Positions 1,718-22,444 of a stretch of DNA of 36,180 nt are shown in pieces (within the stretch, counting starts at the first letter, position 1; each line of letters begins with the position of its first letter). This DNA comes from a virus. Both the position numbers and the translations under genes were made by a program. The stretch covers positions 1 through 36,180 of IMG/VR virus record IMGVR_UViG_3300046824_000128. The stretch is one strand, 5' to 3'. Below the pieces are notes generated by a model. It made no database searches and had not been told where the DNA came from. It worked only from the letters and a program-made list of their open reading frames with translations.

Positions 1718-2149
1718 GTGGCGAAATCCAAGATAGGTGCGCTCGGCGGCAACGACGCCGGCCACGCGATCTCCGCGGGCGTGATGACGGGCGTCGCCGT
1801 GCTGCAGTTCGTGCTCGACGTCGACGAGGTGGATTGGCTGACCTTCGACATCGGCTACACCGGGACGCCCACCGGGACGTTCAAGGTCGAGTCGAGCAAC
1901 AGCTACCTGCCGAACAAGCGCGATCTGAGCGGCATCGTGGTGCCGCCGATCCGCGCCGGGTCCTGGACGAACCTCACGACCAGGCTCGCGCCGGCGATCA
2001 CCAACCCGGCCGGCGCCGCGGGCAACCAGTTCGTCGGCTTCCCGATGGGCGACGTCGCCGTCGGCGGCAGCTACGTGCGGTTCACGTACACGAACACGAG
2101 CGGCGCCGGCGTGCTCGACGTGTTCTACAACGGGAAGGCGATCGGCTGA
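1718..2149 (+). CDS. Beta-rich structural protein (143 aa), probably a tail or receptor-binding accessory
   Basis: GTG start with a GAGGG Shine-Dalgarno sequence. Beta-sandwich-like sequence (FKVESSNSY..., VRFTYTNTSG). TGATG overlap with the next gene. Confidence 0.75.
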   Translation: MAKSKIGALGGNDAGHAISAGVMTGVAVLQFVLDVDEVDWLTFDIGYTGTPTGTFKVESSNSYLPNKRDLSGIVVPPIRAGSWTNLTTRLAPAITNPAGAAGNQFVGFPMGDVAVGGSYVRFTYTNTSGAGVLDVFYNGKAIG

Positions 2150-2910
2150 TGGCGAACCCCGCAGGGACTGCGCTCGACGTCTTCGCGGCCCCGGTAGGAC
2201 CATCGGCGCCCAATTCCATGCGCCTGGCGCTGCCGGACGGCGTGACCCCGTCGGTGTCGGTGAACGGTGGCCCGTACCAGGGCCTCGGCGGCGGCAACAG
2301 CAACGACTGGTACGGTCGGATGTCGACGTTCCTGTTCGCCAAGATCCCGCAGCTCAACACTGCGATCCCAGTCAAGATGGGCGCTTCACCCAACAGCGCC
2401 GCCAGCGCCACTTGGGCCGATGGATTCACCGAGGGGGGCAGCATCAACGGCGGCGCTACCGGCTGGGCAAAAGCGTCGGTAGCGACGGTCTACCAGACGC
2501 CCAAGACGGGCAAGGTTGGCGTGGGATTTCGTGCACGAATGGCGGCCACACCGCCATCGGCGCAGGGAGCGCTCGGCATCGTCAACACCGCGAACTCGCA
2601 TCACGTTACGGTGCAGACGATCAACACGGACACGCACTACATTCTGCGGATCACCGGCGGCGCGACAACGCAGTTCATCACAGCCGTATTGGCCGACCAC
2701 CTGTTCCACGACTGGGCGTTCACGCTCGATGGGACGACGTTCTCCGTCTACATGGATTCGATCGCTCTCGGCGCCGCTGCCGTTCCGATCGGTACCCTGA
2801 CGGACTTCACCAACCTCATCGACGAGGGCATGGCGCCGGGATGGCTGGACGCGGGCGGGGCGTCGCATACCGACGTCAGCGACTGCCTCTATGCCTATAT
2901 CGCTCCCTAG
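2149..2910 (+). CDS. Tail fiber/receptor-binding candidate with a ConA/LamG-like lectin-fold signature (253 aa)
   Basis: ATG 2149 overlaps the upstream TGA. The C-terminal half (HHVTVQ..YILRITGG..DWAFTLDGTTFSVYMDS) resembles the LamG/ConA-like pattern. The upstream part of track ORF 1834..2910 is a shadow. Confidence 0.7.
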   Translation: MANPAGTALDVFAAPVGPSAPNSMRLALPDGVTPSVSVNGGPYQGLGGGNSNDWYGRMSTFLFAKIPQLNTAIPVKMGASPNSAASATWADGFTEGGSINGGATGWAKASVATVYQTPKTGKVGVGFRARMAATPPSAQGALGIVNTANSHHVTVQTINTDTHYILRITGGATTQFITAVLADHLFHDWAFTLDGTTFSVYMDSIALGAAAVPIGTLTDFTNLIDEGMAPGWLDAGGASHTDVSDCLYAYIAP

Positions 2911-3979
2911 GCTCATGAGGGGAGGTTTTGCTGCTCCCTGGTGGGCTCCGTCGAGCCCTGCCTACACTACAGCGCTGAACCTCGCCGACAACGTCGAGAG
3001 CAGCGCCGCGACGATCCAGGGCGCTCCTGGTGGAGGATTTCGCACCAACGGAATGGCCGTCGTGCCTCTCTCTGTGCCCGCCGGAACGTATGCGCTAACC
3101 GTCTACTGCGGCAGCGACTTCATTGGCGAGGCCGGCGGCGGCGATCCTGGCGTGGGCGTGTTCATCGACGGCATCTATTTGACCGAGCTAGTCGTCACCG
3201 CGAACGGCGTAACGTGCTTTGTGCTGCCGCTCGATGGGCAGGCGCATTCGGTCGACCTATACAACGGATTCCAACAGAACAATGTCGCGGGCCTCAGGGG
3301 CACGTATGTAACCGCCGTATCGGGCAAGGGCGTCACGTTCCGCGCGGTCGCCACGCCGACGGTTCGGTTGGCCTTTTACGGCGACTCGATCACGTCGGGC
3401 ATGCTCGGAGCGCCGATGCCGCAGCAATCGTTTTTCGGACGCACGCGCAAGGTTCTGTCGGGCCGTTGCTCAATGGAGGCGTGGGGCGGCCGACGCCTCG
3501 GTGACGATTCGGGCGCATCGGGGCGAACGGGCCTCGGATCTATCAACGCGCTGGCTGCCAGAATGGTGGCGCTGGTGGCGGGAGCAACGACTCGGAAGAT
3601 CGTGCTGCTGATCGGCGTGAACGACTGGGGGAATGGTCCGCTCACAGCCGCCACGTTCCAGACCGCATATGCGTCGCTGCTGACGGCGATCAACGCCGCC
3701 GATTCTGGCGCACTGATTTATGCCGTGTCGCTGACCATCTCGAGCAACGAGGCGGCGCTGGGATTCAACGGCGACGCGAAACCCGCATGGCGCACGGCTA
3801 CAAGCAATGCGGCGGCAGGCAAGCCGAACACAACGTTCGTAGACGGTACGACCTTGATGGTAGCCGGCGGGCTCAGCGGTGACGGCCTGCATCCGGCAAC
3901 GCTCGGTCATCAGGCCATCTTCGACGGGACGGGCGGCTTTGGTGGGGCAACCAACCTGCGCGCCGTGCTCAGCATCTAG
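2891..3979 (+). CDS. SGNH/GDSL hydrolase (putative polysaccharide O-acetyl esterase, tailspike-like) with an N-terminal jelly-roll-like domain
   Basis: SGNH blocks visible: FYGDSITSG (block I), GVNDWG (block III), DGLHP (block V). Alternative start ATG 2915. It is the last gene of the plus arm. Confidence 0.8.
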   Translation: MPISLPRLMRGGFAAPWWAPSSPAYTTALNLADNVESSAATIQGAPGGGFRTNGMAVVPLSVPAGTYALTVYCGSDFIGEAGGGDPGVGVFIDGIYLTELVVTANGVTCFVLPLDGQAHSVDLYNGFQQNNVAGLRGTYVTAVSGKGVTFRAVATPTVRLAFYGDSITSGMLGAPMPQQSFFGRTRKVLSGRCSMEAWGGRRLGDDSGASGRTGLGSINALAARMVALVAGATTRKIVLLIGVNDWGNGPLTAATFQTAYASLLTAINAADSGALIYAVSLTISSNEAALGFNGDAKPAWRTATSNAAAGKPNTTFVDGTTLMVAGGLSGDGLHPATLGHQAIFDGTGGFGGATNLRAVLSI

Positions 3980-3982
3980 GAG

Positions 3983-4396
3983 CTACACCATCGGCGTCAC
4001 TTCGAGCTCCACCCGCGGGTTCTCCCGGTCGATGAGCAGCCGCGACCCGTCCCACGATGCGATCTGCCTGTCGTCGGCGAGCACGCACGGAATCTTGCTC
4101 TTGCCGTGGCCGCCCTGGAGCGCGTCGCCGATGGCCTGGATGTAGCCGGCTAGATCGCCGCGGTCGGCGTCGCGAAAGATCCGCGCGCGCACCTCCACTT
4201 GAGTCTCGGCATTTGTCGGCACCACCGGCGGCCGACCTACCCAGTCCCGTCGGTACTGCCGGCACAGCTGCGCGATGGCGCTCGCCTCCCAGGCCACCGC
4301 CGCCTCGCTCGGGACGGTGTAGACCCGCGCGCCCCGCTGGATGCGGCGAAGGGAGTTCTTCTTCGTGCGCGGGGGGCCGATGATGGTGAACGTCAC
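3983..4396 (-). CDS. rusA: RusA-family Holliday junction resolvase (137 aa)
   Basis: GPPRTKKN near the N-terminus and acidic motifs (DADRGDLAGYIQAIGDAL, LADDRQI) typical of RusA. GTG 4396 overlaps the upstream TGA (GTGA). The longer track ORF start is a shadow. Confidence 0.75.
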   Translation of the reverse strand: MTFTIIGPPRTKKNSLRRIQRGARVYTVPSEAAVAWEASAIAQLCRQYRRDWVGRPPVVPTNAETQVEVRARIFRDADRGDLAGYIQAIGDALQGGHGKSKIPCVLADDRQIASWDGSRLLIDRENPRVELEVTPMV

Positions 4397-4680
4397 GGCT
4401 TCCTGAGAGCGCGGATGGCGTGCTCGGCGAGGGACAGACAGAGCGAGACCGTCGCGCCTGTAGATCCGCCGCTGGCACTGTCGGCGCCGACCGCCGCGAC
4501 GTGAACCAGATCGGCCGCCTCCCGCAGCGCTTCGTCCCGCGCCTCCTTGGAGAGACGGCGCTCTGTCACGATGGCTTTGGCGATGTCGTCGACCAGCCCC
4601 TGGCGCGCGGTCATGTGCGCGGGCACCCAGCGCGTTGCGATCGATTCGGCCTCGGCCTTCGCGGCTTCGTCGGCGGTCAC
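4393..4680 (-). CDS. Hypothetical protein (95 aa), Ala-rich helical; shares a module with the two upstream genes
   Basis: GTG 4680 in a GTGA overlap with the upstream stop. High GC3. Confidence 0.65.
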   Translation of the reverse strand: MTADEAAKAEAESIATRWVPAHMTARQGLVDDIAKAIVTERRLSKEARDEALREAADLVHVAAVGADSASGGSTGATVSLCLSLAEHAIRALRKP

Positions 4681-5558
4681 TTGCCGCCTCGTCGGGCGAT
4701 GGCGTCTGCGATCGCAGCGCAGGGAGACGCGCCGTCCAGGCCGTCGCGCGCGATGGCGATGCACGCCTCCCGCTCGGCCGCGGGCACGGCGGCGTAGGCC
4801 TCACGAACGGCGGCTTGCATCGCCTGCCACATCACTGCGAAGCTGCGCGCGCCATCGTAGTGCCTACCGGCAATCTCCCGCACCACCGCCTCATCGTCCG
4901 CGCCCGGCCCGGCGGCCTCGGGCGGGGGCGGTGCAGCTGCGGGATGCTCTAGCGCCGCAAGTCGCGCCTGCCACTTCAGGAACTCGCCGACGATTCGGTA
5001 ACTCCAGTCGTCGAGCTTGGCGAGCTTGTTCTGCGCCTCGGCCATCGCGTTCTGGGTCGCCGAATCCTGCGCCAACCTGCTGAGGTCAACCTCCAGCCCA
5101 TCCAGCCGCTTGGCGAGCGCAGCGACTGCGAGCATCAGCGGCTTATCGTCGTGGACGTGCCACTCGCATCGGCCTTCGCTGTCGAACTGGCAGGGATACT
5201 TCGACTGCGACACCTTCGGCTTCGCCCCCTCCCCCTGCGCCTGCTCGGCTGGCGTCGCTGCGGCACTGGGCCATACCGTGACAAAAGCGCGCAGTTTGGC
5301 CGACAGGCCATCATCGCGCACGTTCGGGAACGCCTCGCTGATCAGCCGCCGCGCCTCGGCCAGCTCGCCCTTGAGCCGGTCACGTTCGTCCTGCACGGTC
5401 TTGAGCACGTCGGCCGCGAAGTCGTGCGCGGCTCGCTCCTTGTCCCGCTCGGCCCGCGCTTCCTCGACGAGACGGCGCCACTCGGCGTCGCGCCTGCTCA
5501 AACATTCCTCCCGGCTCAGCGCCGCCGTATCATCCAAAAACTGCTCCAGCGTCTTCAT
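4677..5558 (-). CDS. Hypothetical coiled-coil protein (293 aa) with a C-terminal AVREAYAA module
   Basis: ATG 5558 in an ATGA overlap. The sequence MKTLEQFLDD... looks plausible, whereas the track N-terminus is Arg-rich shadow. Confidence 0.75.
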   Translation of the reverse strand: MKTLEQFLDDTAALSREECLSRRDAEWRRLVEEARAERDKERAAHDFAADVLKTVQDERDRLKGELAEARRLISEAFPNVRDDGLSAKLRAFVTVWPSAAATPAEQAQGEGAKPKVSQSKYPCQFDSEGRCEWHVHDDKPLMLAVAALAKRLDGLEVDLSRLAQDSATQNAMAEAQNKLAKLDDWSYRIVGEFLKWQARLAALEHPAAAPPPPEAAGPGADDEAVVREIAGRHYDGARSFAVMWQAMQAAVREAYAAVPAAEREACIAIARDGLDGASPCAAIADAIARRGGK

Positions 5559-7089: not shown

Positions 7090-7853
7090 CAGAACGCCAG
7101 CTCGTCGTCGTCGGCGAAATCGCCGGTGGGCGGCGCCGGCGGCGGCAGCGGGTTGCCGCCCGCGTCCTCGATCTTGAGCTTCTTCGCCTTCGCCCCTTTC
7201 GCCCCCTTGGGCGCCTTGAGCAGCTTCTTCGGCGCCGGCGGCGCCTCGGCGACCTCGGGTAGCTCGTGCGGTGTCGCGTGCCGCTGCCCGTAGTAGCGGC
7301 AGCCCGTCTCGTAGCACCTCACCGGGAGCGGGCGCGACGCCGGCTCGCCGGGGGCGGGCGTAGCAACGAACGGCCTCCCCGCCGAACTAGCATCGCCCGC
7401 CCCCTCGTCGCCTACATCCAGGTCTTCCGCGAGCCGCTCGGCGCGCATCGCCTCGGCCTCCTCGGGCGTCCCCGCCGCGCGCTGCTCCTCGGTCCGCTCG
7501 TCCGGCGCGCCCTTGCGCGCGCCGTCGAGCGAAAGCTGCCGCTCGTCGGGATCCATCTCGCGCTCCTTGACCACCGCCCCCGTGTCGACGCGGTAGGTGC
7601 TCACGCGCCCCGTGAAGGCGTGCGCGACCTCGAAGACCTCGACCTCCCGCTCGATGACCCCCGCGGCCTTGGCGTGGTTCTTCATGTGAATCGAGGCCAG
7701 CAGCGCCTTGATCGCCTCGGGCAGGCGCTTCCGCTCGGCCTCGAGCTTCTCGACCTCGGTCAGCATCAGCGACACCTCGTCGAACAGCGCGAGCTTCTCG
7801 TGCTCGGTGAGGACCACGGGCAGGAGCATCATCTTGGGCGGGTTGGGGTTCAT
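7089..7853 (-). CDS. Protein with an SSB-like acidic C-terminal tip (..PPTGDFADDDELAF); candidate ssDNA-binding or recombination-mediator protein (254 aa)
   Basis: ATG 7853 in an ATGA overlap. The C-terminus resembles the bacterial SSB tail (..DFDDDIPF). It has an N-terminal coiled coil plus a beta-rich region. Confidence 0.75.
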   Translation of the reverse strand: MNPNPPKMMLLPVVLTEHEKLALFDEVSLMLTEVEKLEAERKRLPEAIKALLASIHMKNHAKAAGVIEREVEVFEVAHAFTGRVSTYRVDTGAVVKEREMDPDERQLSLDGARKGAPDERTEEQRAAGTPEEAEAMRAERLAEDLDVGDEGAGDASSAGRPFVATPAPGEPASRPLPVRCYETGCRYYGQRHATPHELPEVAEAPPAPKKLLKAPKGAKGAKAKKLKIEDAGGNPLPPPAPPTGDFADDDELAF

Positions 7854-8467
7854 CGGCGGGCCTCGGTGGGGTTGGGGTTGCTGGTGGACTTCTGCTCGGC
7901 GAGCTCGCGCACGATCGCGGGCAGCTCCGCGCGCGGCGTCTCGGTCCGCAGCGCCGGGAGCCGGCCGTCGATGGCGATGCGGACCGGCCGCGGGAAACAC
8001 GTCCCGGGCAGCGGCTCGCCTCGCAGCGCGTGCGGCGGCGAGACGACGTAGAGCTCGACCAATTCCTCGAACTTCTTGCGGTCCCAGGTGAGCGCGCGCT
8101 CAGATCGCCCGCAGAGCCATTGCCAGCCGCCCATGTTCCGGATGACGGCGTTCACCGTCGGGCCGAAGTCGACGGTCTGCAGGTAGTCGTAGCGGTCCAT
8201 GGCCGCGCGCACCGCCTCCCAGGCGGCGGCGATCGCCGCCTTGCGCGCGCTCGCCCCGGCGCCGCCCAGGTCGAGCAGCTCGGCCGGGCGCGGGAACCAG
8301 CGGAGCGTCCGCCCGGCGGCCTCGATCGCCGTCAGGAACGTCTCGAGCGGCAGCGGGCGCAGGAGCGCCCAGTAGGCCGCGAGCAGCGGCTTCGTGACCA
8401 CCGCGCCCGTCGCGAGCCCCAGCGCCGTCAGCGCATCCGCGAACGCCCTCTTGTCCTGGTCGGTCAT
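7850..8467 (-). CDS. Replication-associated protein; N-terminal pattern resembles G39P-type helicase loaders (205 aa)
   Basis: ATG 8467 in an ATGA overlap. The motif KPLLAAYWALLRPLPLETFLTAIEAAGRTLRWFPRPAEL resembles the loader family pattern (recognised from memory, unverified). It sits directly downstream of the initiator candidate. Confidence 0.7.
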   Translation of the reverse strand: MTDQDKRAFADALTALGLATGAVVTKPLLAAYWALLRPLPLETFLTAIEAAGRTLRWFPRPAELLDLGGAGASARKAAIAAAWEAVRAAMDRYDYLQTVDFGPTVNAVIRNMGGWQWLCGRSERALTWDRKKFEELVELYVVSPPHALRGEPLPGTCFPRPVRIAIDGRLPALRTETPRAELPAIVRELAEQKSTSNPNPTEARR

Positions 8468-9198
8468 GGTCGCCCCTCCTCGGCCCATTCGGCCGCCAGC
8501 GTCTCCTGTTCCGCGTGCCCCGCCGCGAGCGCGGCCGCGCGCGACAGCCGCACCGCCGGCACCGGCGCCGGCTCGTAAACCTCCTCGAAGCCCCTGTACG
8601 CGATCCAGCGGCACACGTCCTTCGGATACGTGTCGCCGAGGCTGGCGAGGTACTCGCCCCACTTGCGCGTCAGCAGCTCGGCGGGCGGGCTGCCGCGCTC
8701 GCGCCAGCGCTTGAGCGCCTCGGACTTGAGGCCCTTCGGCCGCGGGCTGGCGATCGCCTCCCAGAACCGGGAGAACTCCCCAGGGTACTCCGTGCGGGCG
8801 ACTGGCTTGCCCCCGCCCGCGGCGCTGACCTTCACGCGCACGGGATCAACTTCTTGGGATCTCACTCGGAGAGGATCCGGATCTGGATCTGCGAGAGGAT
8901 CGGAAGGGGAGATCGGAGAGGGAGCCGGAGACAGACCCCCCCCAACCCCCCCGCCGCCATTAGCCGCGAGGGGTTGCGATATACCGGGACCGGTTGGAAC
9001 CGGTTGCAACCGGTGGGGACTAATCGCAACCGGTAGGAACTGGTGGGGACCGGTTGCAACCCGCAGGGACGTGGGGTCCACCGTTTCGGTGGTCGACCAG
9101 CGGGCGCCGCAGGGGCACTCGCGCCGGCGCTTGTCCTCGACGCCCTTCCAGGTGTCGACCACGCGGGACGCGGCGGCGCCGCAGGCGGGGCAGTCCAT
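8464..9198 (-). CDS. Replication initiator/organizer candidate (244 aa): N-terminal NrdR-like Zn ribbon, low-complexity linker, C-terminal FW..YP..K..A..W module
   Basis: MDCPACG...RRRECPCGARWSTTE is a zinc ribbon. EFSRFWEAI..PKGLKSEALKRW resembles a module common in prophage replication regions. The linker is encoded by the phased repeat array. ATG 9198 shares one nucleotide with the upstream TGA; an alternative ATG is at 9222. Confidence 0.7.
   Translation of the reverse strand: MDCPACGAAASRVVDTWKGVEDKRRRECPCGARWSTTETVDPTSLRVATGPHQFLPVAISPHRLQPVPTGPGISQPLAANGGGGVGGGLSPAPSPISPSDPLADPDPDPLRVRSQEVDPVRVKVSAAGGGKPVARTEYPGEFSRFWEAIASPRPKGLKSEALKRWRERGSPPAELLTRKWGEYLASLGDTYPKDVCRWIAYRGFEEVYEPAPVPAVRLSRAAALAAGHAEQETLAAEWAEEGRP
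8843..8914. repeat. Cluster of 7 GATC sites (6 as GGATC) within about 70 bp
   Basis: GATC at 8844, 8858, 8874, 8880, 8886, 8898 and 8911. This is far denser than expected for this base composition. It is adjacent to the ACCGGT array. Confidence 0.85.
8989..9064. repeat. Helically phased array of the palindromic hexamer ACCGGT (exact 10-bp register); iteron-like, putative origin of replication
   Basis: ACCGGT at 8989, 8999, 9009, 9029 and 9049; degenerate copies at 9039 (ACTGGT) and 9059 (ACCCGC). The array includes the 16-bp perfect palindrome ACCGGTTGCAACCGGT at 8999-9014. Confidence 0.8.
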
Positions 9199-9518
9199 CA
9201 GGCGGTCTCCGCCGGGCAGCATCCGCAGGGCGGCAGGCTCTCGTACCAGACGGCGTGCGCTGGCGCGGCGGCGTACCGCTTCCTGACCTGGGCAGCGTCG
9301 ATGCGCGCGCCGATCGCGTCGTGGCCTGTCGGCTCGCGGCGGATCCTGGTGGCCTCCGCCTCGAGCCTTGGCTGCGCCGCCGCGTTCTCCGAAGCGTCGG
9401 CAGCGTCCCGAGCGTCGCGCTCGGCGCGGCGGCGACCCATGTGCTCGGCGAAGTGACGCCGGCGAGTCGCTGGGGTCCTGTTGTCGCAGGCGGGTGCGAA
9501 CAAGCTGGTCTGTCTCAT
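9198..9518 (-). CDS. Hypothetical protein (106 aa)
   Basis: ATG 9518 in an ATGA overlap with the upstream stop. Its own stop shares a nucleotide with the next ATG. Moderate to high GC3. Confidence 0.6.
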   Translation of the reverse strand: MRQTSLFAPACDNRTPATRRRHFAEHMGRRRAERDARDAADASENAAAQPRLEAEATRIRREPTGHDAIGARIDAAQVRKRYAAAPAHAVWYESLPPCGCCPAETA

Positions 9519-10012
9519 GAACGGCTCCGGTTTCGCTTGTGGCGCGCCAGCACGCTGGCCCTGTTCGCCTGATACCAGGCTCGCTGATACGCGCGCCTCT
9601 CCTCTCGGTGGGCGTGGTAGTACGCCAGAGCCTCGGCGCGCCGCTTGGCCGCATGACGCTGACGGGACGCGCGTATCAGCTCGAGCTGTCGATCGCGGTT
9701 TGCCCAGTACCGCGCCCTGCGTTGGCGCGCGAGCTTCTCCTTGTTCGCGGCCTCGTACCGGCGGGACTGCGCGCGGTAGACCTCGGGCCGCCGCCGGCGG
9801 GAGCGGAGCTTCTCGAGCCGCTTGATCTCGGTGGCGCGCGCCCTCTCGGCCAGCCGCGTCTCTCGGTCGGGGCGGTCGAAGTCCCGCAGGCGGCCGCGCG
9901 ACATGCCCTGCAGCACCGGGCGCCCGTCCTCGAACCCAACGAACGACGCCTGCGCGTCGACAGGGCGCCCAAGGATCTCGTCGGCCATCAATTCCAGGAC
10001 GTCAGCCCGCAT
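9515..10012 (-). CDS. Arg-rich helical protein (165 aa) with periodic R..Y..N.E....R repeats
   Basis: ATG 10012 lies 5 nt downstream of a strong GGAGG. The track N-terminus (MPSAFGGRGCC...) is rejected. Confidence 0.7.
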   Translation of the reverse strand: MRADVLELMADEILGRPVDAQASFVGFEDGRPVLQGMSRGRLRDFDRPDRETRLAERARATEIKRLEKLRSRRRRPEVYRAQSRRYEAANKEKLARQRRARYWANRDRQLELIRASRQRHAAKRRAEALAYYHAHREERRAYQRAWYQANRASVLARHKRNRSRS

Positions 10013-10106
10013 AGGACCTCCCCAGCACCAGGGCCAAGCGCAGCATCCACGGCCACCGAATGCGCTCGGCAATCCAGAGCGCGAAAGAGAACGCAGCCCA
10101 CCTCAC
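10002..10106 (-). CDS. Possible 34-aa Trp-rich hydrophobic peptide
   Basis: GTG 10106 sits in a GTGA overlap with the upstream stop, the same coupling pattern as its neighbours. Below the track size cutoff and speculative. Confidence 0.3.
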   Translation of the reverse strand: MRWAAFSFALWIAERIRWPWMLRLALVLGRSYAG

Positions 10107-10543
10107 GCCACCGCCCCCCGCCCGGCGCTGAACGCCTCGAACCGCCCGCGATGGATCGCGACCTGCTGCTCGTCCCACTCGCGGCGCCGCGACAGCTTCC
10201 AGCCCTTGAAGTAGCCGGTGAACTGGTCGTGCTCGGCGTGGCAGCCGCGGGCGATGTGACTGTCGGTTACGACATAGACGACGCCCTTGACCTTCTTCTC
10301 CCGCTCGCCATCGAAGACCAGGTGCGGCCCGCAGAGCGGAATCACCTCCGCGTCCGAGCCGTGCTTCATCCCGACGCCGCCCTGGCCGACGTGAGCCGCC
10401 TCGATATTCTGCATCGTCCCGCAGACGCAGCAGGGCTGGTCGTGGATCCAGGCCAGATACTCGGCGTGGTCGACGTTCGCCTCCTGGTGCTTCGTGCGCC
10501 GGCGCCGGGGCATGGGGCCGCGCTTCAGGGGGCTGCGCTTCAA
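10103..10543 (-). CDS. DUF968/NinG-like HNH-family protein (about 146 aa)
   Basis: LKRSPLKRG..., YLAWIHDQPCCVCG...EAAHV...KHGSDAEVIPLCGPH resembles prophage DUF968/HNH-type proteins. The start is uncertain: TTG 10543 (TTGA overlap) or GTG 10579. Confidence 0.65.
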   Translation of the reverse strand: MKRSPLKRGPMPRRRRTKHQEANVDHAEYLAWIHDQPCCVCGTMQNIEAAHVGQGGVGMKHGSDAEVIPLCGPHLVFDGEREKKVKGVVYVVTDSHIARGCHAEHDQFTGYFKGWKLSRRREWDEQQVAIHRGRFEAFSAGRGAVA

Positions 10544-10788
10544 AACGGCGCCTCCGCCCAGGCCCGCGCCCGCTGCCACGCCGCCCGGACATGCACCGCC
10601 GTGCGCGCCTCGAGATCCGCGAGCGCCGCCGCCCGCAGCTCGGGCCGCGCGGCTATCGCCTCGCTCGTCCGGATGGTGTCGATGAGGACCGCCCGCGCCT
10701 CTGTCCTGTCGAGCCCCGCCGCATGGGCGGCGCCGAGCGCCCGCTCGGACGCCGCGACCTCGACGATGGCGAAGCCGATGGCGATCAC
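10540..10788 (-). CDS. Hypothetical Ala-rich helical protein (82 aa)
   Basis: GTG 10788 in a GTGA overlap with the stop of the int ORF. High GC3. Confidence 0.6.
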   Translation of the reverse strand: MIAIGFAIVEVAASERALGAAHAAGLDRTEARAVLIDTIRTSEAIAARPELRAAALADLEARTAVHVRAAWQRARAWAEAPF

Positions 10789-12383
10789 GACGGCCCCTCG
10801 GGATCCTCGTCGAGGATCTGCACGAGCCCGAGCAGCGTCCGCCGGAGCGCGCGCCGGTCGCGATCGTCGACCCACGCCTGCCGCGCCCGGCCGAGAGCGG
10901 TCGATATCGGGTCAGCTACGTCGGTAGTGTCGTCGACGTCGTCGGCGGCGAGGAGGCGGTCAGCGCCGTTCTGCTCCCCGTTCGAGGCTCCCGGCATTGT
11001 GGTCGCCGCGACCAGAATGGGTCGTTTTGACGCGCTTTCTGACGCCCCGGGACGCACCGAAGTGCTTGGAATCCCTATGGTTTGGTCGCGTCCGATGCCT
11101 TGAGGTGCTAGCGGGTGTAAACCCATGGGGGTTCGATTCCCCCTCCTCGCACGGTCTGAATCGTCATTGGAATCAGGTACTTGGCCAGCAGGGCCCGAAG
11201 GGGTCCGCGCCTCCCTGCTCCCCCCCTGACCGGAACGGCGACCACTTTGGCGACCAGAATGGGGCCACAGCTCGTGGTTCGAGGCCTTCGGCTCCGCGGC
11301 AGCCGATGCGGCCAGCACCTCGGAGCCGGCGTTCTTGGCGGGCCGCATGTACCTGGCCGTCGTCGCCGGCTGCCGGTGCCCCGCTAAGTACATCAGCCCG
11401 ACCAGGTTGTCGCTCGACTGCCCCATCTCGGTGAGTCGGCTGTGCCTGAAGTCGTAGTCCGTGATCCGATCGCATCGCGGGGCCTCGATGCCGGCGGCCT
11501 TCGCCGCCTTCCGCAGCGCGATGCGAAAGTCGTGCGCCCCGAAGATGAGCCCGACCTCGGGGCAGATCCGATCGAGCGCCTCCCGCGCCTTCGGGGAGAG
11601 CGGCAGCGTGCGCCCAAACCGGTTCTTGTCCGCCTCATCGCGGATGACCATCTCCTCGGCCCCCCGCCGGTAGTCGTCGGGCGCGCGCAGCTCGGCCAGC
11701 GTCTCGGGCCGCAGGGCGGTCTCCCACGCGACCACGAACCGGTGGCGCACCGAGAACGCCGGCTTGCCCCCGCGCCGCGCCTTGATCCAGTCGGGCAGCT
11801 TCGCGATCACGCGCTGGATCTCGACGCCGGTGAAGATCGTCGAGGCGCGCCGCTTGCCCTCGACGCGCGTGCCGAGCGTCTTCTTCCCGGGCGTCTTGAT
11901 CTCGGGCTGCGCCGCGAGGTGATTGTGCGCCACCGCGTAGGCGGCGATCTGGCGCAGCGCCGACAGCTCCTTCTTGAGCGTCTCTCGCGTTACCTTCTTG
12001 AGCCGAGCCGAGACATACGCGGCGGCCCCGGTCGACGAGAGATCGCCGATGCTCTTGAACGCGCGCATGAAGTGGTTGCCGACGTAGGTCGTCTCGTAGA
12101 GCTTGTACGTCTCGGGGTCGATGCTCGATTCAATCTCGGCGAGCCACTCGGACGCGACGTCGAGGAACGGCGCGCCGCCCGAGCTCGCTACCGCGTGGGC
12201 CTGGTCGTATCGACCGGAAACAACCTCGGCGTAGATGCGAGCTGCCTCGCTTTGAGCCGCGCCGCGATCTCGCGCGCCCGCGAGGAGGAGGTTGCGGCGA
12301 CGGCCGTTGTGCGAGAAGCGCGCGTAGAAGTTCCCCGTGCGCCGATCTTGTCCGAGCTTCCAACCTTTTGGTCGTCCAGCCAT
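10785..12383 (-). CDS. int: Tyrosine recombinase/phage integrase (532-codon ORF; catalytic domain ends near codon 350, and the frame stays open through attP)
   Basis: Catalytic signature: ALRPE (Arg), DFRHSR (His-x-x-Arg), LAGHRQ (His), ARYMRP (Tyr, about residue 345). N-terminal arm-type region GNFYARFSHNGRR. GGAGGA Shine-Dalgarno before ATG 12383. Codons about 372-466 have noncoding-like GC3, and codons 463-532 look coding again. Confidence 0.9.
   Translation of the reverse strand: MAGRPKGWKLGQDRRTGNFYARFSHNGRRRNLLLAGARDRGAAQSEAARIYAEVVSGRYDQAHAVASSGGAPFLDVASEWLAEIESSIDPETYKLYETTYVGNHFMRAFKSIGDLSSTGAAAYVSARLKKVTRETLKKELSALRQIAAYAVAHNHLAAQPEIKTPGKKTLGTRVEGKRRASTIFTGVEIQRVIAKLPDWIKARRGGKPAFSVRHRFVVAWETALRPETLAELRAPDDYRRGAEEMVIRDEADKNRFGRTLPLSPKAREALDRICPEVGLIFGAHDFRIALRKAAKAAGIEAPRCDRITDYDFRHSRLTEMGQSSDNLVGLMYLAGHRQPATTARYMRPAKNAGSEVLAASAAAEPKASNHELWPHSGRQSGRRSGQGGSREARTPSGPAGQVPDSNDDSDRARRGNRTPMGLHPLAPQGIGRDQTIGIPSTSVRPGASESASKRPILVAATTMPGASNGEQNGADRLLAADDVDDTTDVADPISTALGRARQAWVDDRDRRALRRTLLGLVQILDEDPEGPS
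11000..11263. mobile_element. attP region: tRNA-like core flanked by GCGACCA arm-type repeats
   Basis: 14-bp perfect direct repeat GCGACCAGAATGGG at 11008-11021 and 11250-11263. Extra GCGACCA at 11238-11244. Inverted copies TGGTCGC at 11000-11006 and 11083-11089. Locally lower GC. Confidence 0.7.
11100..11151 (+). other. attP core: 3' half of a class II (Leu-like, GAG anticodon-loop-like) tRNA; not a complete tRNA gene
   Basis: Loop-like TTGAGGT, variable-arm hairpin GGGT-GTAA-ACCC, T arm GGGGG-TTCGATT-CCCCC, acceptor 3' strand TCCTCGC, discriminator A. No matching 5' acceptor strand (GCGAGGA) or D arm upstream. Confidence 0.7.
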
Positions 12384-13400: not shown

Positions 13401-13573
13401 CGTCCCCCCCGCGCGCGCCGTTGTTCGACCTCAGTACAGAGCAGCGCCACCTCGCGAATGATCCGGTCGGTTGCCTTGTCGAGCAGCGGCCAGGGCGCCG
13501 CGACGAGCCGTGTCTTCAAACGTGGCGTAATAACTGGGCTTTTAGACGGGGGGGGGGGCGTTATTTTGCTCAT
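13397..13573 (-). CDS. Small protein (58 aa) containing a C11 homopolymer (PPPP)
   Basis: ATG 13573 in an ATGA overlap on both sides. Below the track cutoff as a stand-alone ORF. Locally AT-richer codons. Confidence 0.55.
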   Translation of the reverse strand: MSKITPPPPSKSPVITPRLKTRLVAAPWPLLDKATDRIIREVALLCTEVEQRRARGGR

Positions 13574-13833
13574 CGGTTTTGCTCCCCGGCGCGCTCGACA
13601 TCGTTCGCCGACGCTGGCGTCACGCGCGCATTCGCGAGCAGCGCATCGACGCTGGCGCGCGAGATCCGGTAAGTCGGCTTCGCCGCGCCGGCGGGGCGGA
13701 GATCGAAGGCGACCAGCGAGCCGGCGGCGATGTGCCGGTAGATCCGCGCATGGTCGCAGTCGAGGATCCGCGCGACCTCGCTGACCCTGTAGACCACCCG
13801 ATCGTCGTGATACCTCATGCGCGGCTCGCCCAT
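13570..13833 (-). CDS. Second excisionase-family/MerR-like HTH protein (87 aa); first gene of a leftward transcription unit
   Basis: YRVSEVARILDCDHARIYRHIAAGSLVAFDL....YRISRASVDALL. GAGGTGGA Shine-Dalgarno before ATG 13833. Preceded by a 185-nt intergenic region. Confidence 0.8.
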   Translation of the reverse strand: MGEPRMRYHDDRVVYRVSEVARILDCDHARIYRHIAAGSLVAFDLRPAGAAKPTYRISRASVDALLANARVTPASANDVERAGEQNR

Positions 13834-14450: not shown

Positions 14451-15055
14451 GGTCTCACACCCGCCCCCTCGCGCGCCCCGGCGTACGCCGCCACCACGCC
14501 GGCCAGCTCGCCGGCCGCCCGCTCGACGTCGCGGCGCATGTTCGGATAGGCGTAGAACGTGAGCCGCTGGTAGTCGTAGACCGTCACGCGGTGCCCGTCG
14601 TAGCGCGCCGCGAACAGGTCGTAGCAGAAGCGCTCCGCCCCGAACATGGCGAGGTACGCGCGCCACTGGAGCGAGTCGAGATACTTCTCGGCGTCGATCC
14701 GCTCGGTGAGCTTCTGGTCGTAGACCGCCACGCCGTCGAGCCCATCGACCTGGCCGACGAGCGTGACCGGCCCCGCCGGCGTCGACAGCACCGACTCCGC
14801 CCGAAGCTCGCGGACCGGCGCCAGCTCGATGGCGGCGTCGAGGTCGAAGCTGAATCGCCAGCCATCGCTCTCGACCTCCTCGACCTCGCCGAGGCGGGCG
14901 TGCTCGAACACGCCCGCGAACGCGCGCCCCGCCTCCATCGCCGGCGTCGGCGGCTCGGTGTGGGCGAGCCGCGCGAGCAGCTCGCCCACCGTGCTGTCCT
15001 CGGACGCCCGCCAATAGCGGTACGTCTCGAGGTCGGTCACCCGCAGGCGAATCAC
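14447..15055 (-). CDS. PD-(D/E)XK (Cas4/RecB-like) nuclease (202 aa)
   Basis: GQVDGLDGVAVYDQKLT fits the D...(D/E)xK core. GTG 15055 in a GTGA overlap. It follows the Sak4-like ATPase. Confidence 0.65.
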   Translation of the reverse strand: MIRLRVTDLETYRYWRASEDSTVGELLARLAHTEPPTPAMEAGRAFAGVFEHARLGEVEEVESDGWRFSFDLDAAIELAPVRELRAESVLSTPAGPVTLVGQVDGLDGVAVYDQKLTERIDAEKYLDSLQWRAYLAMFGAERFCYDLFAARYDGHRVTVYDYQRLTFYAYPNMRRDVERAAGELAGVVAAYAGAREGAGVRP

Positions 15056-15999
15056 GCCGCCTTGCTCCCCTTCTCGGAGGCCATGGTCTTCTCGGCCGCC
15101 GCCGGCGCCAGGTCGAAGGCGCCGGTCGCCTTGCTGAACGCGAACCCGCGCGCCTTCGCCGCCTTGACGATCATGCGCTTGACGTTGTCGCGCACCGCCG
15201 GGTCGGCGTCCTTCGCCAGCGGCAGGAGCGCGTCGAAGTCGGTCAGGCTCAGCGCTTTGGCGATCCGCTCCTGCCACTCGGTGAGCGCCGAGGCCGCCTT
15301 CGCCTGCACCGCCGAGAGCCGGTTGAGCGCCGCCTTCGTCTGCGCGATGACGCCCGCCAGGAACGCCGGCTCGGCGGCGTAGTCGGGGATCCCCATCGGC
15401 GCGAGCTGCGCCGGGTTCTTGCCGAAGGCGGTGTCGCTGGGCGACAGGTTGAGCGTTCGCGCGCCCTGGGCGAGGTAGATCCGCCCCATGACATCGGACG
15501 CCTTGTACACCTCGTTTTTGCTGCCGCCCTGCATGTCCAGCCGCTCGATGAGCTCGTCGCCGCTGCGCTGCTCGTCGGAGTGCGCGAGCAGGACCACGTC
15601 GAGGCCGAAGCTGCGGATCAACTTCGCCCAGGAAATAAACCGCGACTTCAGCTCGCCGTAGCCCTGGAGGCTCAGCGATCCGCCGCGCCCCATCTTGGGA
15701 TTGCCGGCGATGATCTCGGCGGTGAGGCAATCGAGCGCCCGCCCGGCGGTGTCGACGACGAGGGTCTTGTAGGCCGCCAGATCGGCGGCGGTGATCGACT
15801 CGACGTCCGACCATCGCTCAATCTGGACGACGTCGCCGCGGTTGCCGGCGCGGTAGCTGCCGCGGTCGAAGTCGAGCAGCAGGGGCTTCTCGGCGGTGAA
15901 CGCGGTGGTGGTCTTGCCGACGCCGGGGACGGCGTAGAGACAGACGGTGATGGTGGTGACTTCGATCGGCTCGCTCGCTCTCGTGATCTTCAGGCTCAT
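15052..15999 (-). CDS. Sak4-like RecA-fold ATPase (AAA_24-type single-strand annealing/recombination protein, 315 aa)
   Basis: Walker A YAVPGVGKTTTA followed by LLLDFDRG, and Walker B-like LVVDTAG. GGAG before ATG 15999. Confidence 0.8.
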   Translation of the reverse strand: MSLKITRASEPIEVTTITVCLYAVPGVGKTTTAFTAEKPLLLDFDRGSYRAGNRGDVVQIERWSDVESITAADLAAYKTLVVDTAGRALDCLTAEIIAGNPKMGRGGSLSLQGYGELKSRFISWAKLIRSFGLDVVLLAHSDEQRSGDELIERLDMQGGSKNEVYKASDVMGRIYLAQGARTLNLSPSDTAFGKNPAQLAPMGIPDYAAEPAFLAGVIAQTKAALNRLSAVQAKAASALTEWQERIAKALSLTDFDALLPLAKDADPAVRDNVKRMIVKAAKARGFAFSKATGAFDLAPAAAEKTMASEKGSKAA

Positions 16000-16753: not shown

Positions 16754-17212
16754 CTACCGGCGGAGCCAGGCGATCGAGGGGATCCCGAGCGCCTCGAGCG
16801 CGACCCGGTGGCGCGCGGGGATCCGGAGGGTCCCGCGGTGCCACCGGCTCACCGTGCCCCGCGAGATGCCGCACGTTTTCGCGATGTCGGCGTCTGTGAG
16901 CCCCAGCGCGATCTGAGCCTTGCGGGAGGCGGTCTGGTCCTTCCGCCCGGCCGCGATCCGCACGCCAAGGGGCATATCCTCGAGGTCGTCCGTCCTGTCT
17001 TGCACCTTCGGGAGTATGGGCGTAGTTTCAAACCTGTGCAAGCTGAGCCGTTCGCCCTTCCGCGCCCGCTCGGCGACCACCACGTCGACGAGGGCCGTCT
17101 GCGCCTCGGTGAGGGCGGCGATCGCCGCGTCCAGGCGCTGCGCCTCGACGTCGACCGCGGCGCGCTTACGGCGCAGCCGGGCGATCTGGGCGTCGAGGGG
17201 AGGGCGGGGCAC
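16754..17212 (-). CDS. HTH transcriptional regulator (152 aa; repressor/Cro-like): N-terminal coiled coil, C-terminal HTH
   Basis: C-terminal IALGLTDADIAKTCGISRGTVSRWHRG is an HTH. GTG start at 17212. An internal ATG at 16975 could give a 73-aa HTH-only product. Confidence 0.75.
   Translation of the reverse strand: MPRPPLDAQIARLRRKRAAVDVEAQRLDAAIAALTEAQTALVDVVVAERARKGERLSLHRFETTPILPKVQDRTDDLEDMPLGVRIAAGRKDQTASRKAQIALGLTDADIAKTCGISRGTVSRWHRGTLRIPARHRVALEALGIPSIAWLRR
16999..17042. promoter_or_regulatory. Dyad element CTTGCAC-N30-GTGCAAG inside the regulator gene; each arm is a -35-like TTGCAC with -10-like hexamers inside (face-to-face promoter candidates or an operator)
   Basis: Plus strand: TTGCAC(17000-17005)-N17-TAGTTT. 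Minus strand: TTGCAC(17041-17036)-N17-CATACT. It coincides with the only low-GC3 patch of the ORF. Confidence 0.4.
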
Positions 17213-19669: not shown

Positions 19670-19925
19670 GCGAGCCCACCAACCCAAGGTCTTCGGCATG
19701 TCATGCCGGCACTGCTCGAACAGGCTCAACGTGTTCGACGTCGGCGCGGGGGTCTTCTACGAGCTGCCCTGCGCGGTCCCCGGCTGCATGGATTCGCCGC
19801 CGGGCGACGCTTACCGGGTGATCACGCCGACAGGCGCCGAGACCTTCGACCGGGTTAAGAGCGCGCCGAGAGACTGGAGGTGGGAGCGCCGTGAGCGACC
19901 TTTCGGTCTGGCTGCGCGCCGCTGA
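19662..19925 (+). CDS. Small Zn-ribbon-like protein (87 aa; alternative start 19698)
   Basis: CRHCSN...CAVPGC. Overlaps both neighbours. Confidence 0.65.
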   Translation: MGERAHQPKVFGMSCRHCSNRLNVFDVGAGVFYELPCAVPGCMDSPPGDAYRVITPTGAETFDRVKSAPRDWRWERRERPFGLAARR

Positions 19926-21438
19926 GGTCGAGGCGCGCCGGCGCGCAGCGCTCCAGACGGTAGCCGAACGGCCAGCCTGGTCACTGGAGTCCTACGCCGC
20001 CGGGCACGACCACCAGCTCGCGGCGATGCGCGACCGGTCGAACTGGATTCACCTGCTGTGCGACAGACAGAGCGGCAAAACGTGGGCCGACCTGGGCGTC
20101 CTGCTCGACAACGCGCTGGCTCAGCCGAACAGCATCAACGTGTTTCTCGGGCTGGTGAGCACCGGCCTCACGCTTTCGGTCTGGCCGAAGTGGCAGCAGC
20201 TCCTCGACAAGCACGGCATCGACCGGCGTGACCGCGCCGACGAGAAGATGACCACGTTCCCGAACGGCGCGATCGTGGCGTTCGGCGGCACCGACGATCT
20301 CAAGAACGTCCGCAAGTACCTCGGCAACCGCCTGGATAACGCCGTCTTCATCGTCGACGAGTGCCAGGACCAGAGCACGGCGGTGCTCTCGTACATCCTC
20401 GACGTGCTGCTCGACCCCATGTGCACGCTGACGACGAGGGTCATCCTGAGCGGCGTTCTTCCTGACCTGCCGTTCGGGCTATTCCTCGACCTGGCGACGC
20501 TCGATGAGGACTCTCAGACCGGCGGCACCCCGGCATCACGGAAGTGGTCGCACCACAGCTGGGGCCGCCTCGACAATGTGCACACGCCCGAGGCAGCCGC
20601 TCGGCTGGCGCAGCTCGAGGCGGAGAAGGGCGTCAACCATCCGCAGCTGATGCGCGACTGGAAGGGCGTCAAGCGCGTGTGGAGCACGGCGGGCACCGGC
20701 TACCACTACTTGCGCGTCCGCAACGGCTACGTGCCCGAGGTGCCGGCGTGGCTCGAAGCGGAGCGGGTCAAGCTCGAGTCCCTCGGCGTGCCCATCGCGT
20801 CGTTGATGGCCGCCGTCCCGCACGCCGGCATCGCGCACGTGAGCGCCGCCATCGACCCAGGGGGGCGCGACCGAACCTCGCTGGTGGCCAACGGGTGGGG
20901 CACGGCCTCGAGCAAGGTGCAGGAGCTGTTCGAGTGGTCGACGCCGCGCAACTCGATCGCGAAGCTCTCACACATCGGCTACGTCGCGGGAATCGTGCAG
21001 CGCATCTTCGCCCCCGCGTGGTGGTTCTGGGACGGACCGGGCTCGCTGGAGATCGACACGTTCGCGCGCGACTACGGCATCCCCACCATCAAGGCGGCGA
21101 AGAAGGTCGACCGCGACGGGCAGGTCCGCCGCGTGAACGATCTGCTCGAGGATGCCCGGTATGAGGTCATGATCGGCGGCGCCGTCGAGGAGGACATGCT
21201 CAAGGCCGCCTGGGACAAGGACCTGCTCGCGCGCGGCATCCGCGAGTGGTCACGAGCCTGGCACCCGGACCCGGCCGAGTCCGCGCGCTACACGCTCGCC
21301 CCCTACTGGGACAGCTTCGTGCCGACCGACCCGCGCAGCCGAAACGAACGCGAGCGCGCGGCGTTCATGGCCGACGCGCCCGACGACGCCGACCGGCTGC
21401 CGCCCGACCCGCTCGCCGAGGTGCTGGGCTGGCGGTGA
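19891..21438 (+). CDS. terL: Terminase large subunit (515 aa)
   Basis: Walker A CDRQSGKTW, Walker B AVFIVDECQD, and a C-terminal nuclease-type AIDPGGRD. GTG start. Position is upstream of the portal. Confidence 0.9.
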   Translation: MSDLSVWLRAAEVEARRRAALQTVAERPAWSLESYAAGHDHQLAAMRDRSNWIHLLCDRQSGKTWADLGVLLDNALAQPNSINVFLGLVSTGLTLSVWPKWQQLLDKHGIDRRDRADEKMTTFPNGAIVAFGGTDDLKNVRKYLGNRLDNAVFIVDECQDQSTAVLSYILDVLLDPMCTLTTRVILSGVLPDLPFGLFLDLATLDEDSQTGGTPASRKWSHHSWGRLDNVHTPEAAARLAQLEAEKGVNHPQLMRDWKGVKRVWSTAGTGYHYLRVRNGYVPEVPAWLEAERVKLESLGVPIASLMAAVPHAGIAHVSAAIDPGGRDRTSLVANGWGTASSKVQELFEWSTPRNSIAKLSHIGYVAGIVQRIFAPAWWFWDGPGSLEIDTFARDYGIPTIKAAKKVDRDGQVRRVNDLLEDARYEVMIGGAVEEDMLKAAWDKDLLARGIREWSRAWHPDPAESARYTLAPYWDSFVPTDPRSRNERERAAFMADAPDDADRLPPDPLAEVLGWR

Positions 21439-22370: not shown

Positions 22371-22444
22371 TGCAGGTTGGGAAAGCGGCAATCCACTGGG
22401 CTCATAACCCTGGGACGCGGGTTCGATTCCCGCACCTGCTACCA
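22371..22444 (+). tRNA. tRNA-Met (anticodon CAT), 74 nt with encoded CCA; initiator-like features
   Basis: Hand fold. Acceptor TGCAGGT/ACCTGCT (6 bp, with a 1-72 U.U mismatch). D arm GGA..TCC with GG in the loop. Anticodon stem CTGGG/CCCTG with three G-C pairs next to the loop CTCATAA. 4-nt variable loop. T arm GCGGG-TTCGATT-CCCGC. Discriminator A, then CCA. Confidence 0.75.

Follow-up and report, generated by a model that had tools for sequence, protein, structure and literature searches.

The DNA analyzed here, a stretch of 36,180 nucleotides from a virus (IMG/VR record IMGVR_UViG_3300046824_000128; here named the window), raises the question of where and by which protein a phage starts replication when no helicase, primase or polymerase gene is found among its open reading frames (ORFs) scanned with Pfam and PHROG profiles. 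An original prediction, made from the sequence alone, had placed a replication origin inside a putative initiator gene, at ACCGGT hexamers in a 10-bp register beside a cluster of GATC sites. Our analyses suggest that the region from ~8843 to 9083 is probably the replication origin of this ~36-kb temperate phage and that it is embedded in the putative initiator gene of the phage itself, where this gene encodes a linker; origin firing, protein binding, unwinding, helicase loading and a role of methylation are what we infer from these data.

Perfect copies of ACCGGT are located at positions 8989, 8999, 9009, 9029 and 9049, i.e., five of the 15 copies in the window, where ~8 are expected in the whole 36 kb. 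Degenerate copies follow at 9039 (ACTGGT, one mismatch) and 9059 (ACCCGC, two mismatches), and direct counting thus confirmed the five perfect and two degenerate hexamers described before. A repeat search revealed eight overlapping copies with a start-to-start distance of exactly 10 bp at 8976 to 9080, and the register is traceable over ~13 units, as expected from the predicted exact 10-bp spacing; the predicted perfect 16-bp palindrome at 8999 to 9014 was found again by the same search. Tandem Repeats Finder (TRF) reported periods of 10, 20 and 30 bp at the array. The mean identity at lags of 10, 20, 30 and 40 bp amounts to 0.54, which is the maximum of the window and about 8 standard deviations above the mean (0.287, standard deviation 0.032). 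Iteron-type theta origins are characterized by at least three clustered repeat copies, and the array contains at least eight in register, five perfect ACCGGT hexamers among them. Its unit, ACCGGTTGCA, is self-complementary when rotated because AACCGGTT and GTTGCAAC are both palindromes, so that the array as a whole forms an extended imperfect palindrome, too. Since the strict spacing of 10.0 bp differs from the helical repeat of roughly 10.5 bp, the proposal that all sites face the same side of the helix is valid over short distances only, unless binding is accompanied by slight overwinding of the DNA.

On one side of the array, GATC is found at 8844, 8858, 8874, 8880, 8886, 8898 and 8911, six times as GGATC. 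The seven sites, predicted to lie within ~70 bp, span 71 bp (8844 to 8914) and form the densest cluster in the window: seven GATC per 80 bp is the maximum, with four in the runner-up and a Poisson probability of ~3e-6 per position. This local density compares with 7.3 GATC per kb genome-wide and is of the kind that marks Dam/GATC-controlled origins, while GATC is neither avoided nor enriched over the genome as a whole (265 observed, 283 expected). The cluster has a GC content of 53% compared to ~72% around it and belongs to the lowest ~1% of 60-bp windows, ranking seventh among the least stable overall. In relatives L005 and L013, the matching position is clearly AT-rich. Two 13-mers starting with GATC (8898 to 8923) resemble the 13-mers of oriC in this respect. 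The linker end at the edge of the cluster recurs as CA(A/G)(G/C/A)A(G/T)GTTGATC in most relatives.

For comparison at the DNA level, nine other distinct metagenome loci (designated by L numbers) were used in addition to the window, to which two further loci, L021 and L022, are identical. The ORF remains open through the linker in each of the ten, i.e., the putative origin lies in the middle of a gene. The linker stretch is shaped by selection on the DNA and not on the protein. The five perfect ACCGGT copies are read in frames 0, 2, 1, 2 and 0, hence in all three frames, and a 10-bp unit cannot be a peptide repeat. Re-encoding of the linker peptide with the codon usage of the phage yielded on average 0.12 and at most two ACCGGT hexamers in 20,000 trials, compared to the five observed, and none of the simulated sequences matched the periodicity of the array. 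The array uses codons that are found at frequencies of 1 to 9% in the phage (GTT, GCA, GGT, CTA, AGT, TTG, CAA, CCA and ATA), the GC content at third codon positions (GC3) is 0.61 in the linker versus 0.92 elsewhere, and the ratio of the Asp codons GAT and GAC is 5/1 in the linker versus 55/259 elsewhere. Furthermore, the linker contains seven GATC sites where 2.25 are expected from the peptide (P = 0.0012). The fall in GC3, the preference for GAT and the excess of GATC over the peptide expectation recur in the nine loci tested. Between the window and L001, conservation at codon positions 1, 2 and 3 follows the usual coding pattern in the zinc ribbon encoded by the start of the gene (0.76, 0.84 and 0.55), whereas no such pattern is seen in the array (0.75, 0.68 and 0.70). 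The reading frames, the re-encoding test, the shift in GC3 and GAT usage and the flat conservation across codon positions all support the earlier view that the periodicity of the DNA and not the peptide is the selected feature.

These results bear directly on the explanation that the region has no function, i.e., that it is an unconstrained low-complexity linker which arose by slipped-strand duplication of 30 bp (10 amino acids [aa]) and compositional drift, with the GATC sites as a by-product of a peptide rich in Asp, Pro and Ser. TRF indeed scores the 30-bp period best (73% matches), but identity at lags 10 and 20 (0.47 and 0.56) nearly equals that at lag 30 (0.57). The peptide shows a loose 10-aa repeat (LRVATGPHQF / LPVAISPHRL / QPVPTGPGIS), a weak periodicity that arises because three 10-bp DNA units fit ten codons, and the palindromic hexamer recurs in all three frames, a result that 0 of 20,000 re-encodings reproduce. 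While Asp-Pro and Gly-Ser dipeptides tend to generate GATC, the sites exceed the peptide prediction in the nine loci tested, and the rare codons GAT, GGA and GTT are used consistently against a GC3 of 0.8 to 0.9. The linker is predicted to be disordered, as a lack of constraint would suggest, yet codon positions are equally conserved in the array, the module of G-run and GATC cluster is 89% identical in L014 where the array is down to 58%, and the three-part layout recurs in lineages with sequence-unrelated repeats. Absence of function is therefore very improbable.

Array and GATC cluster are separated by a tract that reads G7-TT-G8 on the coding strand and is built from GGG glycine codons, although the genome prefers GGC. 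The form G7-T(T/A)-G7/8 is kept in all five loci whose zinc ribbon is of this type (L001, L006, L011, L014 and the window), and L020 has a single G8 run. A G-quadruplex or a rigid G/C tract is conceivable as the structure adopted here. Conservation of the G7 and G8 homopolymer runs would also suit an RNA-level element, in which hairpins between ACCGGT copies of the mRNA together with the G-runs cause ribosome pausing, frameshifting or slippage, giving a product that consists of the zinc ribbon only. The single strand does fold better than shuffled sequences (z = -3.3; 0 of 200 as stable); its centroid structure, however, is nearly empty with many alternative pairings, and no credible Rfam match was obtained. 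In addition, self-complementarity of this kind is not shared by the repeats of other lineages, and differences among the G-runs are due to substitutions and not to frame-shifting indels. Both the enrichment of GATC and the strict 10-bp phasing are, moreover, properties of double-stranded DNA, and we give an RNA element next to no weight.

The gene that carries the element overlaps the stop codon of the upstream ORF with its start (TGATG at 9196 to 9200). Residues 1 to 38 of its product match the Pfam family Zn_ribbon_NrdR (PF22811) with an expect value (E) of 2.7e-9 and 37.3 bits (cut-off, 27.2), and the N terminus harbors two CxxC motifs and a basic patch, as found in NrdR ribbons. Searches of the N terminus against Pfam, NCBIfam and PHROGs gave matches to Zn_ribbon_NrdR and phrog_10675 only. 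In an AlphaFold2 (AF2) model, a three-stranded ribbon is followed by a disordered region (aa 41 to 135) and a confidently predicted helical domain (aa 138 to 205), and the element occupies exactly the disordered linker. ORF, Pfam match and predicted disorder thus bear out the earlier placement of both arrays between the zinc ribbon and the C-terminal domain. The full-length model gave no significant fold match, the top one being a Dof zinc finger on palindromic DNA (E = 1.2). Zinc-ribbon pairs of NrdR bind palindromic boxes via R12, R26 to R29 and R37, with D15 and R17 reading bases (PMC9110341), and in an alignment to NrdR (7p37) the residues S11-R12-V13-V14-D15, K23-R24-R25-R26 and R33 match NrdR R12, D15, R26 to R29 and R37. 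Binding of NrdR to its boxes is reported to depend on helical phase (PMC12051234).

The array might accordingly be read as an operator, with the zinc-ribbon protein acting as an NrdR-like repressor inside its own gene, where it autoregulates or blocks early transcription, and with the GATC cluster as an unrelated methylation-sensitive switch. The only significant Pfam or NCBIfam match of the protein is indeed the DNA-binding domain of a repressor whose pairs bind palindromic boxes in a phase-dependent manner, and DNA-level selection as well as joint divergence of domain and array would be compatible with any cis site to which the encoded protein itself binds. However, the protein lacks the ATP-cone, the defining domain of NrdR. 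Neither sigma-70-like promoters nor intrinsic terminators were found in 7800 to 10200, and the sites are located well inside a gene with no promoter-like site nearby. The C-terminal family matches replication-initiation and primosomal PHROGs and is also fused to N termini of the replisome-organizer type, and the next gene downstream encodes a putatively G39P-like protein. A pure operator would leave the phage without a candidate for either initiator or origin; autoregulation and origin function can, moreover, coexist, as at plasmid iterons. We therefore regard the operator as an unlikely, though not negligible, alternative to an origin.

The replication-related assignment comes mainly from the C-terminal domain, which is presumably the module that recruits a loader or helicase. 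Among 46 full-length proteins sharing this domain, 26 match phrog_270, "replication initiation protein" (best E = 9e-25), 15 match phrog_9327, "primosomal protein", and six match phrog_9474; these matches fall on the C-terminal domain and the linker region. Of the 46 proteins, 17 combine the domain with a zinc ribbon, whereas winged-helix organizer-like, helix-turn-helix (HTH_36) or DUF1376 N termini precede it elsewhere. Directly downstream lies a gene for a DUF6475 protein whose AF2 model (predicted local distance difference test score [pLDDT] of 90) has as its best, though weak, fold match in the PDB the G39P helicase loader of phage SPP1, with the similarity in the N-terminal part (1no1; probability 0.82, template modeling [TM] score of 0.71 over 66 aa, E = 2.1), while a sequence search against PDB gave no match. 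DUF6475 homologs also follow organizer-like genes in unrelated phages (L015 and L017). The gene at 8464 to 9198 lies in the early operon, with recombination and integrase genes on one side and a RusA-like resolvase gene on the other. Because of the C-terminal homology, the putatively G39P-like fold, the early-operon position and the lack of any other replication gene, the most economical reading is that 8464 to 9198 and 7850 to 8470 form an initiator-loader pair; judged by its homologs, the former plausibly encodes the replication initiator.

Five of the 46 family members (P0033, P0051 and P0071 among them) carry an HNH endonuclease domain inserted between zinc ribbon and linker; in L005, an HNH/DUF968 gene is separate (193 to 549) and lies just upstream in the operon. 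In L017, the linker of the organizer-type gene upstream of the DUF6475 homolog (4096 to 5004) contains (CAGAC)x5-6 near gene nucleotides (nt) 485 to 520, encoding DQTRPDQTRPE; with its 5-bp unit, it is a further case of an initiator linker whose DNA repeat does not follow the triplets.

Relatives of the gene are rare. A full-length search gave seven matches among 5.8 billion clustered proteins, the family of the C-terminal domain comprises 62 clusters among 1.84 billion representative proteins, and a third homology search, using a profile of this domain, returned six proteins. At the DNA level, a search of viral contigs found one locus (L007, identical to L009) and a search of genome contigs one marginal match in a Burkholderiales metagenome-assembled genome; nothing similar to the initiator or DUF6475 gene was found in GenBank phages, neither in DNA nor in protein. 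Public gene calls shorten the initiators to the C-terminal domain, as in P0025 (C-terminal 125 aa), P0005, P0027 and L014 (578 to 955), and calls restricted to this domain are also found in L013 (6001 to 6417) and L020 (1511 to 1840), apparently because of the aberrant codon usage of the embedded element. Gene callers thus seem to make a systematic annotation error, missing zinc ribbon and linker of such initiators.

The order zinc ribbon, repeats, GATC cluster, ...GTTGATC... end and C-terminal domain is shared by all ten loci. GATC clusters of 5 to 8 sites per 100 nt start in the same place in each of them, at gene nt 192 to 331. The arrangement of the arrays, whose conservation in related phages the original prediction had named as a check, is thus kept in the nine relatives, while the repeats themselves are lineage specific. 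In L020, CTACCYGTAG, present six times in the linker, occurs nowhere else in the 6.8-kb locus, and 5,000 simulations gave a mean of 0.003 and a maximum of one copy. L014, a phage nearly identical to that of the window, is most similar to the window in the upstream gene (97% identity), in codons 1 to 7 (100%) and in the C-terminal domain (95%), whereas identity drops to 80% in the rest of the zinc ribbon and to 58% in the array, with 89% in the G-run and GATC cluster. In L014, the equivalent of the base-contacting D15 of NrdR is altered as well (SRVVD to SRVTT). Judging from this comparison, the putative DNA-binding domain and the array diverge together as one unit. In lambdoid O/ori pairs, initiator and sites change specificity together, and the divergence of L014 would be the pattern expected of an initiator and its sites switching specificity jointly.

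Other cis-acting sites were also considered, namely, a partition centromere comparable to the 11-bp repeats of parC, a pac site or arm sites of the integrase. Type II centromeres typically carry tandem short repeats at about one helical turn, but no ParA/ParM-type ATPase or ParB was found among the window ORFs scanned, and the phage has an integrase and is therefore not plasmid-living. A pac site can also sit inside the gene of its binding protein; terminase and portal genes, however, are more than 10 kb away. With the integrase gene at a distance of 1.6 kb, arm sites would be conveniently placed, yet in relatives the element accompanies the zinc-ribbon gene both with and without an integrase in the neighborhood. 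Annotations also place the relatives of the C-terminal domain among replication proteins, and any of these sites is highly unlikely in our view.

Within the window, no candidate competes with 8843 to 9083 as the origin: a motif scan found the array motif at 8954 to 9083 only, and the AT-richer intergenic regions (~16666, 18033 and 13896) were rejected as rival origins because they contain no repeats. GC skew was set aside as an indicator, since it tracks the direction of transcription.

How could such an origin work? We propose that paired N-terminal NrdR-type zinc ribbons would bind the palindromic ACCGGT-like hexamers every 10 bp over ~110 to 130 bp, and that the bound hexamers would assemble into a nucleoprotein filament with regular phasing, similar to the O-some of lambda. 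The pitch of 10.0 bp, compared to ~10.5 bp of the helix, would favor overwound bound DNA, compensated by unwinding of neighboring DNA. The strain would be relieved in the adjoining GATC cluster beyond the G7TTG8 tract, the least stable stretch hereabouts (53% GC in a genome of 72% GC), and the C-terminal domain would then recruit the G39P-like downstream product and the replicative helicase of the host. Probably, adenine methylation of the GATC cluster influences firing, or else the cluster is bound in its own right.

Several findings weigh against an origin at this site or against parts of this model. No DnaA boxes were found near the element. The candidate unwinding element is AT-rich only in relation to its surroundings, and lower stability is found in six 60-bp windows at other places. 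The window protein itself stays below significance against the PHROG replication families (best, phrog_3729 with E = 0.014), so that its link to initiators comes from homologs and from PHROG labels, which are themselves annotations. Likewise, the fold match to G39P is weak (E = 2.1) and covers 66 residues. Repeat evidence is thin in some relatives, with two copies each in L005 and L013, and the similar ribbon of L011 keeps D15 yet is accompanied by different repeats, so that domain and repeats do not correspond strictly to each other. Finally, no [DNS]PP[YFWH] motif of adenine methylases is present in a plausible ORF of the window, and a role of methylation is therefore speculative here.

Methylase genes are found near the initiator genes of relatives, of the Dam or D12 class in L013, L001 and L017 and of the N6_N4 class in L007, L015 and L020. 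In every related locus with a few kb of context, the distance between the initiator gene and a gene for a DNA methyltransferase is at most ~3.5 kb.

A further step is the assignment to a previously undescribed class of initiators, in which an NrdR-type zinc ribbon polymerizes on 6-bp palindromes at an exact 10-bp pitch within its own gene. We put this forward tentatively, at slightly below even chances. In such a class, a pitch that is not a multiple of three would allow sites to be gained or lost only in threes, and origin and protein linker would therefore be evolutionarily locked together. Phages would exchange specificity by means of a compact cassette of recognition residues and array, and G-tract and GATC module would represent a cross-lineage, possibly methylation-gated, melting or licensing element. 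If the region is indeed an origin, the zinc-ribbon family of uncultivated high-GC phages would independently use the origin-inside-initiator design as a second, non-homologous solution, and the role of NrdR-type zinc ribbons would extend from transcriptional repression to origin recognition. Since the window and L014 differ mainly in recognition residues and array, they constitute a ready-made pair for the study of origin specificity. Moreover, the combination of GC3 collapse, non-triplet repeats and GATC excess inside an ORF is a simple signature that could locate phage origins in metagenomes.

The features of the window and the corresponding elements in related loci are summarized in Table 1.

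Table 1. Features of the putative origin region, the phage genome and related loci (positions refer to the window unless a locus is named)
Feature	Position	Strand	Remarks
Putative replication initiator gene, 244 aa	8464-9198	minus	Zinc ribbon, disordered linker, helical C-terminal domain
NrdR-type zinc ribbon, codons 1-38	9085-9198	minus	Presumed iteron-binding domain; Pfam Zn_ribbon_NrdR
C-terminal helical domain, aa 128-244	8467-8817	minus	
Iteron-like array	8954-9083		Consensus unit ACCGGTTGCA (10 bp, ~13 units); core hexamer ACYRRT
C8-AA-C7 tract	8936-8952	plus	Coding strand G7-TT-G8; between ACCGGT array and GATC cluster
GATC cluster, candidate unwinding/regulatory element	8843-8925		GGATCT x3 (8873-8891); purine-rich plus strand
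Linker end	8844-8856	minus	CAAGAAGTTGATC, peptide QEVD; conserved
DUF6475/phrog_10105 gene, candidate helicase loader	7850-8470	minus	Directly downstream; overlaps initiator stop codon
HNH/DUF968 gene	10103-10579		Separate, just upstream of initiator gene, same operon
Tyrosine integrase	10785-12383	minus	
Excisionase-like HTH	13570-13833		
Sak4-like annealing protein	15052-15999		
Repressor-like HTH	16754-17212		
RusA-like resolvase	3983-4804		
Large terminase	19891-21438		
tRNA-Met (CAT)	22371-22444		Between terminase region and portal gene
Portal, Head-tail_con/SU10 type	22459-24375		
Linker repeats, window, L001 and L006			ACYRRT hexamers, 10-bp register (lags 10/20/30/40)
Linker repeats, L014			GCTACCGGTC x2
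Linker repeats, L011			TCGACAGGG x3-4
Linker repeats, L005 and L013			GGTAATAGCGCC x2, 23 bp apart
Linker repeats, L007			CAGTGGGT-type x4
Linker repeats, L010			GGTAGCACGC x2 and CACCGGCGT x2
Linker repeats, L020			Palindromic core CTACCYGTAG x6
Methyltransferase gene, L013	4971-5552		
Methyltransferase gene, L001	2629-3648		
Methyltransferase gene, L017	1320-2471		
Methyltransferase gene, L007	4223-5026		
Methyltransferase gene, L015	3664-4548		
Methyltransferase gene, L020	4922-5722		

The phage is temperate and podovirus-like, with a GC content of roughly 70%. Nucleotides 1 to 127 of the window match 36054 to 36180 exactly, and the window is therefore a circularly closed assembly representing a complete genome of ~36.05 kb; a gene at 35175 to 36180 runs on into 13 to 615. 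In a stretch of lower GC content (2000 to 4000; ~64% GC), an ORF on the plus strand (2891 to 3979) encodes a GDSL-type lipase/acylhydrolase (Pfam, E = 1.9e-13; phrog_6102, "lipase", moron category) and may be an acquired accessory gene. A 21-bp tandem repeat at 1529 to 1610 (3.9 copies, 86% matches), inside the ORF 509 to 1690, is in frame and gives a 7-aa repeat, unlike the 10-bp array. The two most AT-rich spots of the genome (16640 to 16740 and 18002 to 18090; 37 to 49% GC) are located on either side of the repressor-like gene, where the divergence of leftward and rightward operons begins, and are probably promoter/operator regions.

Among known systems, the lambdoid phages (lambda, Stx phages and P22 with gene 18) are close in architecture. 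The ori of lambda lies in the middle of gene O (PMC7466680), and the earlier comparison with lambda is apt in this respect but does not extend to homology, as no match to Phage_rep_O was obtained. Shared features are, with the origin, its initiator sites, the unstable tract and the loader gene being putative in the window, an origin in the linker between an N-terminal DNA-binding and a C-terminal loader-recruiting part of the initiator, repeated initiator sites adjoining a less stable tract, a loader gene that follows immediately, additional iterons that lengthen the protein (PMC7466680) and reliance on the host replisome. The N-terminal domains lack homology, with a zinc ribbon in the window protein and a winged helix in lambda O. 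The window has ~13 units with 6-bp palindromes at a strict 10-bp pitch, whereas lambdoid origins have four to six iterons of 18 to 19 bp, and the flank is a GATC cluster of 53% GC behind a G7TTG8 tract instead of the A/T tract of lambda. In Bacillus phage SPP1, which encodes the organizer G38P, the loader G39P and the helicase G40P, oriL with its AB boxes and unwinding element is embedded in the organizer gene 38, and the loader gene comes next (PMC5737612). The window likewise shows a gene with a putative origin inside it, followed by a candidate loader gene. The N-terminal domain of the window protein does not resemble that of G38P, however, a DUF6475 domain is additionally present in the downstream protein, and no helicase domain was found among the phage ORFs scanned. 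As tests for N-terminal homology gave none to either family, the window protein stands outside both the lambda O and the SPP1 families.

With NrdR, which represses the genes for ribonucleotide reductase, the protein shares a zinc ribbon above the Pfam threshold and, putatively, palindromic sites such as those bound by ribbon pairs at NrdR boxes. The NrdR model TIGR00244, however, matches residues 1 to 47 only (19.5 bits versus a cut-off of 124.65), and without the ATP-cone the window protein is not an NrdR. According to AF2, an unrelated helical domain, of the replication-initiator type, follows the disordered linker instead, and the presumed targets are many hexamers spaced by 10 bp in the protein's own gene and not two 16-bp boxes in a promoter. 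GATC-dense origins include oriC of E. coli and oriI and oriII of Vibrio cholerae, and methylation is essential for P1 and ColV-K30 (PMC2865523). As in these origins (P1 oriR among them), a GATC cluster adjoins putative initiator-binding repeats in the window, but, in a difference from V. cholerae oriII, none of the GATC sites falls within the putative initiator sites, and, in contrast to methylation-controlled origins, the phage has neither a recognizable methylase nor DnaA boxes. The best reading of these comparisons is that the design matches that of lambda ori in gene O and of SPP1 oriL in gene 38 but is built from non-homologous parts, and that the region is an iteron-type origin embedded in its own initiator gene, with a zinc ribbon as the presumed DNA-binding domain and a 10-bp array of unusual regularity.

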